From positions 64,001 through 128,000 of the forward strand of contig BTVY01000013.1 of assembly GCA_045863335.1 (NCBI GenBank): a stretch of 64,000 nt of DNA, given 5' to 3'. Positions 47,406-62,555 of the stretch are shown one piece after another. The notes below the pieces were generated by a model. The model was not told where the DNA came from, did no database searches, and saw only the letters and a program-made list of their open reading frames with translations. The first letter of the stretch is position 1. Every line of letters begins with the position of its first letter. The stretch comes from Candidatus Hydrogenedentota bacterium (GTDB lineage Bacteria > Hydrogenedentota > Hydrogenedentia > Hydrogenedentales > SLHB01). The position numbers were made by a program, and so were the translations under genes.

Positions 47406-47993
47406 ATGGAATGCCCCGAAAGAAATGACGAGGAGCAGAAGAAAAACGACGGCATGACGAGCCATCTGCTCAAGACGCGCACCATCGTGCTGTCCGGTCA
47501 AGTGGACCAGGAAATGGCCGAACGGGTCATCTCGCAACTGGTGGTGCTGGACAACGAAAACCACGATCCGATTCGCGTGATGATCACGTCGCAGGGCGGG
47601 CACGTGGACTCCGGCATGGCCATCCACGACGTCATGCGCTACGTCAACTCGCCGGTGTATACCATCGGCGCGGGCTGGGTGGCGAGCATCGGCGTGCCCA
47701 TCCTGTTCGGCGCGCCGGACAAGGCCCATCGCGTGGCCCTGCCGAACACGCGCTTCCTCCTGCACCAGCCGAGCGGCGGGGCGGGCGGCCACCTGCAGGA
47801 CATCCGCATCGAAGCCCAGGAAATCATGCGTATCCGCCAGCGGTTGAACGAACTCATCGCCAAGGAGACCGGACAGGACGTGGCGAAAGTCGCCAAGGAC
47901 AGCGACCGCAACTACTGGATGGACGCCGAAGAAGCCGTGAAGTACGGGATCATCTCGCGGGTCGTGCAACACGCGAAGGATGTGGTGAAGTAA
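47406..47993 (+). CDS. clpP: ATP-dependent Clp protease proteolytic subunit (paralog type)
   Basis: ITSQGG, VASIG, LPNTRFLLHQPSGG and DRNYWMDAEEAVKYG. Start uncertain (47406 or 47454). Confidence 0.92.
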   Translation: MECPERNDEEQKKNDGMTSHLLKTRTIVLSGQVDQEMAERVISQLVVLDNENHDPIRVMITSQGGHVDSGMAIHDVMRYVNSPVYTIGAGWVASIGVPILFGAPDKAHRVALPNTRFLLHQPSGGAGGHLQDIRIEAQEIMRIRQRLNELIAKETGQDVAKVAKDSDRNYWMDAEEAVKYGIISRVVQHAKDVVK

Positions 47994-48019
47994 GGAAATA
48001 AGCCGGGTTTTGTGCCCGT

Positions 48020-48080
48020 ATGTAGCGCAGGCGTCCCCGCCTGCAAGGACTTGAAGCAGGCGGGGACGCCTGCGCTACAT
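48020..48080. repeat. GTAG-type REP doublet between convergent genes
   Basis: ATGTAGCGCAGGCGTCCCCGCCTGC (48020-48044) perfectly inverted at 48056-48080. Confidence 0.9.
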
Positions 48081-48084
48081 CTCT

Positions 48085-58160: not shown

Positions 58161-59408
58161 TTACTCCTCCGGTTCCGCCAGCACTCCCGTGAAGAGTATG
58201 CAGCCGGTCTTGGTATCGCGGAGCAGGAAGACAAAGGGGTGGTCGGCCACGAAAGCCGGGATCTCCATTGGTGCGGCCGTCAATTTCATCACGACACCCG
58301 TTGCCGCTGCCGCTTCGGTGCCCTCTTCGTTCACCTCGATGAAGGCCTGATGAATCACATCGGAGATGAAGAGGTCGGGAACGCCGGACATGCCGGAGAA
58401 GTCCGCGTTCTCCGAGAACACGGTGGTCATTCCCATTGCGCGAAGGAAATCCGACAACGAAGATTTCGCGTTCATCGTGAACCGGGGCAGCGAAAGATCG
58501 ATCTGCTGTTCCGCCATCTCGGCCAGAGTCGATTCGAGCCATTGTGGAGTCAGTTCAGATTCCAGCCGCGTCAAGCCGGAGACGTCCTTGGGCAACAGTA
58601 CCGTCATGGCCACGCGCTCGCCGGTGTAAGGCAAGTCAACGGCTTGCAGCCAATCGTTCGCGAAATAGCGGAAGTCATTGCGCTGCTTCATCATGCGGAC
58701 CTTCGTCGTGGAGCCGTCCAGCAACGTGAACGTCGCTTCCGACGTGTTGTCCTCGTTGAACTGGGATAGCCAGAGACCTTTGAAGTAGATCGCGTTGGTC
58801 AAGACCAGCCGCGTCATCGAGTCTAAAACGCCTTCCGGGATGAGATCTTCGATTCGGTCTTCCGTCTTTTCTTCCACCCAGTCATTGATGGTTTGGCGCG
58901 CCTGTTCTACGTCGCTTTCGTAATCCAGGCGGGTTACATCCGTCTCATAGGATTCGCGCATGAGGTCCAAGTACGAATCGAGCAACGTGTAGCGGACGTG
59001 GGGCCAGAGGGCGTTCGCAACGTGCAATTGATATTCCTCCGACGATTCCAGCGACCGGCCGAGGTTGCCCATTACGCGATGAAACTCAGACGTGTTGGCT
59101 TCGTAATGCAGGACTTCGCGCATCTCGTCCGCCGTTTGGCCCTTTGCGCCAGCGTAGACCATCGCCAAGGCCGTGTCTACGCTGTACGGCGAAGCCAGCG
59201 TGTTGGTGCCCGGGTCATTGCCTTGCCGAAGCGCACGGAACAATTCAAGGGAAAACGCATTCATTTCCATTGCAATCTCTTTTTGCGCGGTCACGTTCTC
59301 AGCCGGTTCAGGATCACGGGGTGCAGGTTGCTGCTTCGAGGTCGCAGCGCCTCCGCACGAAAAGAGTGACAAGACGATCGTAGCGATTGCCAGAGAACGA
59401 GTAGACAT
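58161..59408 (-). CDS. Serpin (lipoprotein)
   Basis: LFSC lipobox; SPYSV, INDWVEEKT, LTNAIYFKG.W, EEGTEAAAAT and FVADHPF. Confidence 0.95.
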   Translation of the reverse strand: MSTRSLAIATIVLSLFSCGGAATSKQQPAPRDPEPAENVTAQKEIAMEMNAFSLELFRALRQGNDPGTNTLASPYSVDTALAMVYAGAKGQTADEMREVLHYEANTSEFHRVMGNLGRSLESSEEYQLHVANALWPHVRYTLLDSYLDLMRESYETDVTRLDYESDVEQARQTINDWVEEKTEDRIEDLIPEGVLDSMTRLVLTNAIYFKGLWLSQFNEDNTSEATFTLLDGSTTKVRMMKQRNDFRYFANDWLQAVDLPYTGERVAMTVLLPKDVSGLTRLESELTPQWLESTLAEMAEQQIDLSLPRFTMNAKSSLSDFLRAMGMTTVFSENADFSGMSGVPDLFISDVIHQAFIEVNEEGTEAAAATGVVMKLTAAPMEIPAFVADHPFVFLLRDTKTGCILFTGVLAEPEE

Positions 59409-59907
59409 GGAATCGATTCCTTTCCACCGGAGCGGGTGCCTGTTCGGGTCATATCCGCTACCGGAAACGACATCTACCGGTTAGAGCATAGTCCTACCAG
59501 ATTACACCCGTTGCCTTGGACACCACGAGAGCAACCTTGGTTCGGGGTCGGGGTCTGCGAGTTGGGGTGGTTCTCTCGAGCCTCATTCCCGCCCCGTGCG
59601 CAAGGGATCCAGGTGTTGGCGGGTGTCTTTCTCGCCCTCGAAATCCTCCCGATCTGGTCCTGATGCGACCCGGGAATGACCAGTTTATCCGCATGTGGAT
59701 TAACTGTTTACACGCCCCGAGGGAGACGCGCCGGGTTCAGACGCGCCAGGATAGTATTGCCCGCGTGTTCGTCGAGTCGATTTTGGCGTAACTTAATATA
59801 AATCAGTATGTTACAGCGATCGCGGAACGTCGAATCCGCAACCAAAAGTGACCCGAATCATGGAAATTGCCGTCCTGCAACAGGTTAGGAAAACGCCAAA
59901 AAAGAGC

Positions 59908-59936
59908 GAGACAAGTGCCCCTCGATATGCTATCCT
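59908..59936 (+). promoter_or_regulatory. Putative extended -10 promoter
   Basis: GAGACA-17-TATCCT with TG; the same TGCTATCNT motif occurs at 17542 and 50730. Confidence 0.5.
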
Positions 59937-59942
59937 ACGGCT

Positions 59943-60300
59943 GAATGTAGTGAGGCTGCGTTCGGGTAGAAGCCGTCGGGGCAGGCGGCCTATCGCGAGA
60001 TGCCCACTCCAGTGCAAGTTTAAAGAACATTGATTCGGGGCGTAGCCATTCGCGCCATCGGATCTGGTGCAATGTTCTTGCCACGTCAATGGCGTGGTTC
60101 GTGCACCAGGAGTCATTCAATGGGTATTGCGGTGATTCGAGCCTGCCGTCTTTAAGCGCCTCCTACGCGTTTCCTCCTTTCGGAGACGGATTAGAGCCAT
60201 TGAGCAACGCCTGTCCCGACGCGCTTCGGCCTCCCCTAACGGGGAGGCCGCACTGCTGTATGAACGACGAGAGCGCCCCACAAGTGCGAGGCGCTCTTTT
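59943..60300 (+). ncRNA. Candidate structured non-coding RNA
   Basis: Long-range and nested helices whose G-U pairs work on the + strand; lies between a putative promoter and terminator; no credible ORF. Confidence 0.55.
60270..60300 (+). terminator. Intrinsic terminator-like hairpin
   Basis: AGAGCGCC...GGCGCTCT followed by TTT. Confidence 0.6.
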
Positions 60301-60471
60301 CCATTCCATCGACCCTTTCCAAGATTGATCCGTGCACAATCCCTTGATTTATCCGTCGTGAAAATAGTTATGGAAACGGGTGGGCATATAGGCATATGCT
60401 CTGCGCTTGCAAGGGTTTCCATCTGTCATCGGGATTTGGGTTTGTCCAATTTCAAGAAAGGCGAGGGGCAA

Positions 60472-61176
60472 ATGCGAACGGATATCTCGGTATACAACGA
60501 AGCGACGGGTTTCACGATTCACGCAGCGGAATTCTGCGGCACCCCCCGGGATGAGGTCATCAATCGACTGCGAAGCAGCGTGGAAAACGGCATCGTCATC
60601 CCCATACGCCTGGTGCAGGATAGTTCGCCGCACATTCGATTGATTACCGGCGAATTGAAGCCCGAGGAGGACGCGGAGTGGGTCGATCGCTTCGTTTGGA
60701 AACTGCGTGTACCTTGCGGAAACCTCGTGTTTGAAGGCGGACTCGACCCTCGCGGCCCCAATGAAACGTATATGCGCACCGTTCCAGTTCCGCCCGGCGA
60801 TTACCAAGTGGAAGTATTCACGTTCTTTTGGAGCATCAACGGCTGGGACAGCTTGCCGGCCGAACAGTATGAACCCGTCGGCACATGGTTTCGGCGGACT
60901 CGGCCCGGAGAGAAGTTTCCGAATGCGATGAAGTTCTACCTCGGCGAAAACTGCGATGACGATCCCGGCCACGAAGACGAATGGAACGAGTTCTATGACT
61001 CGGAGGCCTATGAAGAACTCGACGAGCCTGACTTCGTTGATTTTCTCGTGCGGATCACGCCACTGGACCCCTCGGCGAATCTCGAACTGCAATGCGACGA
61101 GGATGGATGGTTTCCCATCGGCATCAACCCGCGCAAACCCGAAGTGTGTCCGAAAGGCATCAACTTCAATCGTTGA
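60472..61176 (+). CDS. Acidic hypothetical protein (234 aa)
   Basis: RBS GAGGGG; VPPGDYQVEV motif; no signal peptide. Confidence 0.7.
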   Translation: MRTDISVYNEATGFTIHAAEFCGTPRDEVINRLRSSVENGIVIPIRLVQDSSPHIRLITGELKPEEDAEWVDRFVWKLRVPCGNLVFEGGLDPRGPNETYMRTVPVPPGDYQVEVFTFFWSINGWDSLPAEQYEPVGTWFRRTRPGEKFPNAMKFYLGENCDDDPGHEDEWNEFYDSEAYEELDEPDFVDFLVRITPLDPSANLELQCDEDGWFPIGINPRKPEVCPKGINFNR

Positions 61177-61184
61177 ACGAAACG

Positions 61185-62384
61185 CTACCCCTTCAACACG
61201 GCCGCTATGGCGTTGCACAGGGCGTCCATGTTGTCTGCCGTCATGCCGGCCACGTTGATGCGGCCCGAACCGACGATGTAGACCGCATGCTTGTCGCGTA
61301 ATTCGGCCACGTGGTCCTTGGTCAGCCCGGAGAAGGAAAACATGCCTTTCTGGGTCGTCAGGAAAGAGAAGTCTTGCTTCACCCCCTTGGCTTTGAGGGT
61401 GTCCACGAAGAGCTGGCGCATGCCCGCGATACGGTCGCGCATTTCCTTCACTTCACCTTCCCACAGCGTGCGTAACTCCGGGTCGTTCAACACGGTTACC
61501 ACGATCTGCGACCCATGGGCGGGCGGATTGGAGTAGTTGGTACGGATGACGCGTTTGAGATGGCTCAGGGCTTTCTCCGCGGCGGTTTCGGATTCGCCCA
61601 CAACCGTCAAGGCGCCGACGCGTTCGTTATAGAGGCCGAAGTTCTTGGAGAAGGACGAGCAGATCATCAGTTCCTGACCTGCGCCGAGGAACTGCGACAG
61701 ACCGACCGCGTCTTTGCGGATGCCGTCCGCGAGACCCTGGTAGGCGAAATCGAACACGGGCATCCAGCCCTGCTTCGCGGCCACGTCCGCGATGGCTTTC
61801 CATTGCTCCGGCGTGGGGTCCATGCCGGTTGGGTTGTGGCAGCAGCCGTGGAGCAGCACGAACTCGCCGGACGGGATCTTCTTCAGCGCGTCCAGCATAG
61901 GCTCAAAGTTCAGGGTCTTGTTCGCGGCGTCGTAGTAGGGGTACGTGGCGATCTCGAGTCCCGCGGCCTCGAACACGCTGGGATGGTTGGGCCAGGTTGG
62001 TTCGCTCAGCCAGATCCGCCTCGCACCCAGGAGGCCTTTTATGAAATCACCCGCGGTGCGGAGCGCGCCGGTGCCCCCGGGGGTATGGGCCGTGACGGCG
62101 CGGTTGGACTTCACGATCTCGTGGTCCGCGCCAAAAAGCAGCTCCTGGACGGCGGCGGCGTAATCCATGGCGCCGCTGTTCGGGCTGACATAGTTCTTGG
62201 TGGACTCGGTGGCGACGAGCCGTTCTTCCGCTCGCTTGACGCATTGCAGTACGGGCGTCTGGTTCTTCGCATCGCGATAGACCCCGATGCTGAGATTAAT
62301 CTTCGCGGGGTTCGGATCTTTCTTGAAGGTTTCGATAAGGCCGAGAATGGGGTCTGGCGGCGCCATGTCGAGAGCGTTAAACAT
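61185..62384 (-). CDS. aspC: Aspartate/aromatic aminotransferase (AspC/TyrB type)
   Basis: APPDPILGL, GGTGALR, LHGCCHNPTG, DFAYQG and SFSKNFGLYNERVG. Confidence 0.93.
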   Translation of the reverse strand: MFNALDMAPPDPILGLIETFKKDPNPAKINLSIGVYRDAKNQTPVLQCVKRAEERLVATESTKNYVSPNSGAMDYAAAVQELLFGADHEIVKSNRAVTAHTPGGTGALRTAGDFIKGLLGARRIWLSEPTWPNHPSVFEAAGLEIATYPYYDAANKTLNFEPMLDALKKIPSGEFVLLHGCCHNPTGMDPTPEQWKAIADVAAKQGWMPVFDFAYQGLADGIRKDAVGLSQFLGAGQELMICSSFSKNFGLYNERVGALTVVGESETAAEKALSHLKRVIRTNYSNPPAHGSQIVVTVLNDPELRTLWEGEVKEMRDRIAGMRQLFVDTLKAKGVKQDFSFLTTQKGMFSFSGLTKDHVAELRDKHAVYIVGSGRINVAGMTADNMDALCNAIAAVLKG

Positions 62385-62555
62385 GCCTGTCCTTTCCTGC
62401 AATGGACTGTCTTGGGGCGGTTGACGCTGGCCTGATTGTCGCGGATGCATTCCGCCCCCGTGTTCCCTCTTGCGTCCCTATGCGCATGCACCCGTTAACC
62501 GCATATTATATCGCGGCCGGGAGCGAATCCCAAAACACCGCGAATGCGACCCTTA

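Follow-up and report, generated by a model that had tools for sequence, protein, structure and literature searches.

Trans-acting RNAs whose unpaired anti-Shine-Dalgarno (anti-SD) motifs occlude the ribosome-binding sites of several mRNAs have been demonstrated experimentally in CcsR and NfeR1, as set out in two reports (PMC8034643, PMC10746234). According to these reports, RNAs of the CcsR type, from Alphaproteobacteria, are built of two or three simple hairpins with CCUCCUCCC in each loop and often lie in tandem copies beside DUF1127 genes, and among the CcsR, 'cuckoo' and alpha-r14 RNAs the motif is ultraconserved while the stems vary (PMC8034643, PMC10746234). Here we describe a gene for a structured noncoding RNA (ncRNA) from a bacterium of the phylum Hydrogenedentota (Candidatus Hydrogenedentota bacterium, assembly GCA_045863335.1). 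It lies in a stretch of 64,000 nucleotides (nt) of contig BTVY01000013.1 (positions 64,001 to 128,000 of the forward strand), hereafter the window, where it occupies positions 59942-60226 on the + strand. The gene is about 285 nt long, encodes a multi-helix RNA and is present in a single copy in the genome (6.75 Mb in 105 contigs, 99.4% complete; G000 below). We regard it as very likely that this is a real, stand-alone gene for a structured ncRNA, because its helices covary and indicate the strand, its promoter is conserved and the contigs assembled from RNA libraries are confined to it.

As far as those published accounts go, the resemblance to CcsR1-4 and NfeR1 lies in two CCUCC motifs, which are predicted to be unpaired and form the most conserved part of the molecule, while the stems of the Hydrogenedentota RNA covary. 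It differs from CcsR and NfeR1 in its length of ~285 nt, its single copy, its multi-junction scaffold and its phylum. Moreover, CCUCCUCCC is absent, the motifs being CCUCCUA and CCUCCUUUC, of which just one sits in a hairpin loop. Membership in the CcsR, cuckoo or alpha-r14 group was rejected, since the RNA has neither CCUCCUCCC nor any Rfam match; at best it works like them. The model of RcsR1 (RF02552) scored 14.4 against 60 bits, on the 3' hairpins only.

An earlier note, made from the letters of the window alone, had proposed a novel structured ncRNA at this place. A cmscan of the whole window against Rfam 15 (4227 models) at gathering thresholds gave no match, in keeping with that proposal. 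At E values up to 10, the region 59400-60500 yielded nine matches, all far under threshold and at chance level, the best of them being STnc210 in the promoter region (20.6 vs 100 bits). ARAGORN found nothing in the window. The genes for all four housekeeping RNAs were found elsewhere in the genome, above threshold: transfer-messenger RNA (tmRNA) on contig C42 (189.7 bits), RNase P RNA on C28 (302.7 bits), signal recognition particle (SRP) RNA on C39 (57.6 bits) and 6S RNA at C46:60020-60205 (57 bits). Because all four are encoded elsewhere and no model matches at the locus, a housekeeping identity was rejected; the earlier note had rightly seen no tmRNA, RNase P or SRP signature. Elsewhere in the window, on the - strand at 47983-48081, the bacterial RNase P model scores 24.3 bits, below its threshold of 100 bits; the true RNase P RNA is the one on C28.

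6S RNA folds into an extended rod-like helix with a large central bubble that mimics open promoter DNA. It and other protein-sequestering RNAs are like the RNA described here in being single-copy structured RNAs of a few hundred nt with their own promoter, and in being recovered from RNA libraries while their neighbours are not, a likeness in abundance and stability. Unlike 6S RNA, however, the Hydrogenedentota RNA is branched, with two domains and no rod with a central bubble, it does not match RF00013, and its genome keeps a bona fide 6S gene. The possibility of an atypical 6S RNA, which the earlier note had kept in play, was rejected on these grounds. A literature search found no work on RNAs of Hydrogenedentota, and a broader query was too unspecific to decide. 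In our view the RNA represents a new family; if it belongs with the anti-SD riboregulators at all, it is a greatly enlarged form of them.

Fold and distribution of the RNA

A blastn search recovered the RNA from all five other genomes of its genus (80-97% identity) and, more weakly, from three other genera. The four genera, here called g1 (that of G000), g11, g8 and g17, belong to one Hydrogenedentota family, f1. A covariance model of 292 positions (R1) detected the RNA in 14 of 135 Hydrogenedentota genomes, in one copy each, with E values from 1e-95 to 2.5e-45. By genus, these comprise all five g1 genomes plus G000, all five g11 genomes, two of the three g8 genomes and the single g17 genome; by family, 13 of 53 genomes in f1 besides G000, and none of the 81 genomes in the other 14 families. 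With laxer filters, a search of 40 f1 genomes recovered the strong matches again, and no hit had an E value between 2.5e-45 and 0.004. The third g8 genome, G117 (91% complete, in 920 contigs), had no match; the genomes searched are mostly incomplete, and absence here means not found in those searched. Scanning public genome contigs for the invariant motif gave 11 loci, nine of them true and six of these nine copies of loci already in the set, while the other two, in a Lachnospiraceae and a Rhodospirillales metagenome-assembled genome, were rejected as chance matches. The same scan of metagenome contigs gave nine loci and no new homolog. Among the genomes searched, the family is therefore restricted to four genera of one Hydrogenedentota family.

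On the + strand, the region 59943-60300 has a minimum free energy (MFE) of -164.7 kcal/mol (z = -5.42), and none of 100 dinucleotide shuffles folded as well, so that the expectation of a fold better than shuffled sequence was borne out; the - strand gave z = -3.54. Copies in G015 and G012 reached z = -3.98 and z = -3.10, respectively, with 2 of 200 shuffles as good in the latter. RNAalifold, applied to a MAFFT alignment of 12 homologs, predicted 54 pairs, 17 of them with compensatory changes, and in the R1 alignment 94.5% of cells were paired, against 37-47% with slid partners.

To avoid circularity between genera when testing the helices proposed in the earlier note, a second model (R2; 90 pairs) was built from the six g1 sequences alone and the MFE structure of the window copy, and the 14 homologs were then aligned to it. 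In this alignment, which is fitted to the R2 structure and so favours it, and in which the g11 rows G112 and G114 are misaligned at helix P0, 91.7% of 1,214 cells were paired, compared with 36.6-45.1% in slid controls. Changes on both sides that preserve pairing occurred in 48 of the 90 pairs (slid, 11-17), and the covariation score was 0.386 (slid, 0.057-0.099), a value reached by none of 500 shuffles. The eight homologs that did not define R2 had 595 of 674 cells paired. G-U pairs outnumbered A-C oppositions by 174 to 30, from which it follows that the + strand is the RNA strand, as the earlier note had read from its G-U pairs.

Every helix that the note had listed was present, at or within 1-2 nt of the position proposed for it. 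At the 5' terminus, the hairpin P0 (59943-59951 / 59955-59963) has compensatory changes in seven of nine pairs and 90.5% of its cells paired, and hairpins of different sequence take its position in other genera. The long-range helix P1 (59970-59987 / 60208-60226), of 18-19 bp with one bulge and one G-U pair, encloses the core of the molecule (59970-60226); its 18 modelled pairs are 97.9% paired, five with compensatory changes. The 5' domain (59991-60134) begins with P2 (59991-60005 / 60122-60134), formed by ATCGCG/TGCGGT and ATGCCCA/TGGGTAT (13 pairs, 8 compensatory, 83-89% paired), and continues with P3 (60006-60016 / 60102-60113), formed by CTCC/GGAG and GTGCA/TGCAC (10 pairs, 8 compensatory, 87-96% paired). 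The strands of P3 are wholly different between genera, with their complementarity kept. Through P2 and P3 the 5' domain opens into a three-way junction whose other arms are P4 and P5. The long hairpin P4 (60023-60079) consists of P4a (60023-60031 / 60071-60079) and P4b (60032-60043 / 60052-60064), with 16 of its 21 pairs compensatory and 92-93% of cells paired; its GCCAUUC loop (60046-60052) and GGUGCA internal loop (60066-60071) are kept in 13 of 14 homologs, G021 being the exception. No conserved complement of either motif, as a tertiary partner, was found on inspection by eye. P5 (60080-60087 / 60091-60098), the variable hairpin of the junction, has five modelled pairs, three of them compensatory and 80.3% paired, and appears in the independent folds of 13 homologs, the MFE structure of G002 differing there. 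The 3' domain holds P6 (60146-60153 / 60182-60189) and, enclosed by it, the hairpin P7 (60154-60159 / 60167-60172), with compensatory changes in one of eight and none of six pairs, respectively. Covariation thus supports P1 to P5 among the proposed helices, and it neither supports nor contradicts P6 and P7, because these barely vary.

The single-sequence folds share a common layout in all 14 homologs, namely P0, then P1, then P3 closing a junction that holds P4. They disagree in the linker between P1 and P2 and, for g8, in the 3' domain. Because the MFE and RNAalifold structures differ in g11 and g8 for this linker and for the outer part of the 3' domain, no helices are assigned there. The perfect 10-bp hairpin 3' of P1 (60227-60250) is lineage-specific, being found in G000, G003 and G005, shorter in G004 and absent elsewhere.

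Promoter, terminator and transcript

Upstream of the RNA, an A-tract (59898-59903) is followed on the + strand by a -35-like element, GAGACA (59908-59913), and, 17 nt after it, by the extended -10 sequence TGCTATCCT (59928-59936). Twelve distinct homologs of the 14 were compared here, the upstream regions of G113 and G118 being left out, and in all 12 upstream regions read, the pattern AAAAAG..(A/G)AGAC-N17-TGnTAnnnT stands at a fixed distance from the RNA, with a spacer that varies. The -10 variants among the 12 are TGCTATCCT, TGCTATGCT, TGCTAGGAT, TGCTATTAT and TGGTATGCT. A simple consensus promoter scan of 59300-60600 returned no site; it is blind to this promoter because GAGACA and TATCCT each match at only four of six positions. 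The promoter claimed in the earlier note is thus conserved and, as judged from its sequence, is of the sigma-70 type with an extended -10. The predicted start of transcription, inferred from the spacing, lies at about 59942-59943, some 7 nt after the -10 and where P0 begins.

At the other end, the intrinsic terminator expected by the note is present on the + strand, with a stem (60269-60277 / 60290-60298) and a subsequent U-run reaching 60300; a terminator scan marks 60283-60295 together with the T-run CTTTTCCATT. A GC-rich hairpin with a U-rich tract occurs 45-75 nt after P1 in all six g1 copies; in the eight homologs of the other genera, no clear terminator was seen. The primary transcript probably runs to this terminator at about 60300. 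A separate feature was seen in G015, where GTGCTCGTGTCTC-like tandem repeats lie directly after a T6 tract about 50 nt 3' of its RNA copy (locus L008, 1625-1700).

Among the matches listed, 22 public sequencing runs from 16 studies contained part of 59800-60400, and 11 of these runs are recorded as RNA. We compared the contigs of four RNA runs (X1, X3, X4 and X11) with the region 59000-61300. In X3 and X4, both bioreactor metatranscriptomes, there was one contig each, identical to the window over 59968-60220 and 59963-60218, respectively, and no cover on the other ~2 kb of the region. X11, a sediment metatranscriptome, gave one contig over 59963-60204 with seven differences, plus a 33-nt piece in the neighbouring aminotransferase gene. 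X1 covers the whole 2.3 kb and is uninformative for that reason, since DNA could be its source. An abundant stable RNA would be expected to give cover limited to its own gene, as seen in three studies, and carry-over of DNA would not produce this pattern; the uncovered flanks in X3, X4 and X11 say nothing on whether the flanking genes are silent. The RNA thus appears to be expressed and abundant. As to the transcript of about 350 nt proposed in the note, the confinement of the contigs to the element agrees with it, but their span of ~59963-60220 leaves out the 10-bp hairpin at 60227-60250, and the stable species may be shorter, namely the core closed by P1 (~59963-60226), for which the shared contig limits, just inside P0 and P1, are a weak hint.

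The 3' domain and a candidate target

The most conserved part of the RNA is a nearly invariant 3' domain (60146-60189), consisting of P6, P7 and two CCUCC-containing motifs. Motif 1 is CCUCCUA in the loop of P7 (60159-60165), and motif 2 is the single-stranded UUUCCUCCUUUC (60170-60181), which contains CCUCCUUUC. The sequence GCGTTTCCTCCTTTYGGAGAC is identical in 13 of 14 homologs, with G118 reading GGAAAC, and GCGUUUCCUCCUUUYGGAGAC is likewise the same in 13 of 14, the remaining RNA having diverged to ~70% or less. In partition-function folds, motif 2 has a predicted unpaired probability of 0.67-0.91 in all 14 homologs, and motif 1 of 0.55-0.87 in 12 of them; the mean over all nucleotides is 0.28-0.36.

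Motif 2 also repeats nine consecutive nt, CCUCCUUUC, of the anti-SD tail of 16S rRNA, since the 16S rRNA of this family ends in ...GGAUCACCUCCUUUCUAAGGAG. This end was read from 5 rRNA loci of 10 fetched, including one from g1 and one from g11; the 3' end of the 16S gene is not assembled in G000 (model positions 9-707 matched), and the tail is taken from relatives. The likeness extends past the identical CCUCCUUUC to a GGAG able to fold back as in the rRNA trailer, CCUCCUUUCUAAGGAG. It stops before helix 45 and the GGAUCA part. The RNA gene, unlike 16S rRNA, does not adjoin an rRNA operon, the partial 16S gene being on another contig. Exact 13-nt copies of the 16S tail, GGATCACCTCCTT, were also seen outside rRNA at loci L059, L062 and L067 (in G107, G018 and G116), beside a conserved CCGGGTTTTCCCG-type hairpin; on the other strand these form an extended Shine-Dalgarno (SD) site, AAGGAGGTGATCC, just before ATCGATG.

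The most likely mode of action among those considered is that of CcsR and NfeR1. The 3' domain would present CCUCCUA and UUUCCUCCUUUC unpaired, copying the organism's own 16S anti-SD tail, and the RNA, acting in trans, would use these exposed motifs to pair with the SD regions of selected mRNAs, thereby shutting out 30S subunits. The large covarying 5' scaffold could give stability or serve as a handle for a protein. We put forward this anti-SD pairing tentatively, at a probability of roughly 0.38. The best candidate target is the gene that stands first in a family of small lipoproteins specific to the clade.

The organisms make use of strong SD sequences, and G000 has 1,420 start-like sites in which GGAGG is placed 4-10 nt before an open reading frame (ORF) of 80 amino acids (aa) or more. 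The search for targets was made in G000 only and considered exact complements of the 51-nt 3' domain. Besides the gene itself, it returned 100 complements of at least 11 nt (77, 14, 5, 3 and 1 of 11, 12, 13, 14 and 15 nt, respectively). Two 14-nt sites lie at the starts of ORFs of at least 100 aa, one encoding the lipoprotein and the other a ceramidase-like protein, and a 14-nt complement at C39:66483 precedes a 51-aa ORF only. The longest complement of motif 2 at a start codon in G000 is the 14-nt AAAGGAGGAAACGC, which ends 2 nt before the ATG of the lipoprotein gene (138 aa; C8:91406-91822, - strand, locus L089, outside the window). The leader of this gene, GTAGGGTGCAG-AAAAGGAGGAAACGCAC-ATG, is conserved at the nucleotide level across genera, while the proteins are only 40-50% identical. 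Its complement to the RNA measures 14 nt in G004 and G112, 13 nt in G015 and 11 nt in G021; the two g8 genomes have 11 nt, which by our reading becomes 13 nt when their own U-variant of the motif is used. In g11 and g8 the lipoprotein genes are arrayed in tandem, with 3 and 5-6 copies, respectively, and the family was found in 10 of 40 f1 genomes, namely all eight with the RNA plus G116 and G119, which are fragmentary and had no RNA match. A further sign, suggestive only, is that GGAGG followed by AAACG is found at 9 of the 1,420 sites, rank 2 of 698 distinct 5-mers; part of motif 2 is complementary to GGAGGAAACG. Judged from these sequence comparisons, the lipoprotein leader is the best target lead, not a demonstration.

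Several observations weigh against anti-SD pairing or against this target. Complements of at least 13 nt number nine, against about eight expected by a rough uniform-composition estimate, and because the count is so close to chance, the 14-nt matches are not significant alone. The ceramidase-like gene (C40:66049) was rejected as a target, its 14-nt complement not being kept in the ortholog in G004, of the same genus. A-rich spacers after GGAGG are common in general. G116, which is 84% complete and in which no RNA was found, keeps a similar lipoprotein leader with one mismatch, and the shared distribution of the RNA and the lipoprotein family may reflect common descent only. Motif 1 is predicted to be paired in both g8 genomes (0.16 unpaired) and reads CCUCAGA in G021. 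A multi-junction scaffold of ~285 nt is also far larger and more elaborate than the known anti-SD small RNAs, and would suit protein binding or some other function no less well. Finally, the wider account of the gene has weak points in that terminators were seen in g1 only and that the most distant homolog, G021, does not fold better than shuffled sequence.

Genomic setting and rival explanations

Inspection of window positions 59500-60800 placed the RNA gene in a gap of 1.06 kb. This gap is bounded on one side by a serpin gene (58161-59408, - strand; PF00079) and on the other by a 234-aa ORF that has no Pfam match (60472-61176, + strand), the latter followed by a class I/II aminotransferase gene (61185-62450, - strand). 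The upstream neighbour is divergent and differs between genera, being the serpin gene in the readable g1 loci (G000, G003 and G005) and a gene for an R2-like protein (PF00268) in g11, g8 and g17. Downstream, the neighbour in most genomes is the convergent aminotransferase gene, which in the relatives comes directly after the RNA, the 234-aa ORF being present only in G000, G003 and G005. Neither repeats nor a transposase were found near the RNA gene. The sites for integration host factor (IHF) that the earlier note had placed around the RNA did not withstand scrutiny: 60337-60349 is the sole consensus match in the window, where 0.66 are expected and 49 of 100 shuffles have at least one, and it is not conserved in G003 or G005.

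With this arrangement, the structured region might be thought to be a cis-acting leader or riboswitch with alternative folds, controlling the ORF at 60472-61176 on the + strand or, from the other strand, the upstream gene. A terminator does follow the structured region, the ORF begins 170 nt after that region in G000, and two competing pairings, which the earlier note took for a switch, can be drawn in G000. However, the same-strand ORF is confined to three genomes, with mostly a convergent aminotransferase gene elsewhere, the upstream gene is not constant, the 174:30 ratio of G-U to A-C excludes the - strand, and the RNA contigs end before the ORF. The switch itself found no support among the homologs, since the CTGGTGCA/TGCACCAG pairing is restricted to the near-identical genomes G000, G003 and G005, and GGCAGGC/GCCTGCC, whose sequence is conserved, lacks covariation and is disrupted in two of the 14 homologs, G111 and G021, with no compensating change. 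Synteny largely refutes a cis leader, which we hold to be very improbable. Even less credible is the absence of any functional RNA, with the good fold being incidental to conserved DNA between genes, to the decayed remains of a coding or mobile element, or to a regulatory region at the DNA level. Such a view could draw on the narrow distribution and on the most distant homolog, G021, whose fold is not thermodynamically unusual, being equalled by 60 of 200 shuffles (z = -0.43). It could also point to the expression support, which consists of assembled contigs that give no strand, level or true ends. Against it stand the 48 of 90 compensatory pairs (slid, 11-17) with their strand-specific G-U bias, the promoter at a fixed distance, the single copy without repeats or transposase nearby and the RNA-library contigs, which in three studies keep within the element. 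In agreement with the note, there is also no credible ORF between promoter and terminator: no reading frame is conserved across the homologs, and the indels between close relatives fall in stems and have lengths that are not multiples of three.

The more serious rivals accept the RNA and differ on what it does. It could be a protein-binding RNA, part of a ribonucleoprotein (RNP), in which scaffold, loops and the look-alike of the 16S tail bind or titrate a protein, as do 6S, Ms1 and CsrB-type RNAs; a candidate partner would be a factor that recognises the pyrimidine-rich 16S 3' end or single-stranded CU-rich RNA. In size, in its multi-junction build and in the conservation of its loops it is closer to RNP RNAs than to base-pairing small RNAs, it assembles from metatranscriptomes without the neighbouring genes, as abundant stable RNAs do, its 3' domain is conserved over ~34 nt, beyond the needs of a seed, and CCUCCUUUC followed by GGAG recalls the 16S tail with its trailer CCUCCUUUCUAAGGAG. 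Yet there is no linked partner gene, the neighbours not being the same in all genera (upstream a serpin or an R2-like gene, and in three genomes an additional ORF), no repeated array of protein-binding motifs as in CsrB, and the 16S resemblance ends at 9 nt plus GGAG. A role in an RNP or in titrating a 16S-tail factor is, taken alone, unlikely, and still nearly as likely as anti-SD pairing. A further reading, which we think improbable, is that CCUCCUUUC and the trailer-like GGAG on their scaffold act as a global mimic of the 16S tail, competing with 30S subunits for strong SD leaders or titrating a factor that binds this tail. To the same improbable degree, the RNA may have another activity, be it catalysis as a ribozyme, ligand sensing in trans or a structural role, with the CCUCC motifs making internal tertiary contacts. 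The complex covarying fold with invariant unpaired segments would suit this, and several large bacterial ncRNAs went for years before a function could be given to them. It is opposed by the lack of a conserved internal complement of the motifs (the GAAAGG junction, a potential partner of CCUUUC, is not conserved in G000, G003 and G005), of a self-cleavage signature and of a family match, and by the narrow distribution.

Few large bacterial ncRNAs with complex folds and no assigned function are known, and such RNAs have tended, one by one, to open up new biology. Hydrogenedentota is a phylum without cultured model organisms, for which the present analysis provides a covariance model, a defined promoter and the idea of a scaffold that displays anti-SD motifs, with one concrete candidate target. 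If the RNA is instead a global mimic of the 16S tail, it would stand for a novel type of regulatory RNA or RNP, one that acts on translation as a whole and is confined to one lineage of an uncultured phylum, and if anti-SD pairing is false, it would be an orphan RNP or structural RNA. If anti-SD pairing is true, anti-SD riboregulation would have an independent origin beyond the Proteobacteria, and in an RNA of far greater complexity.

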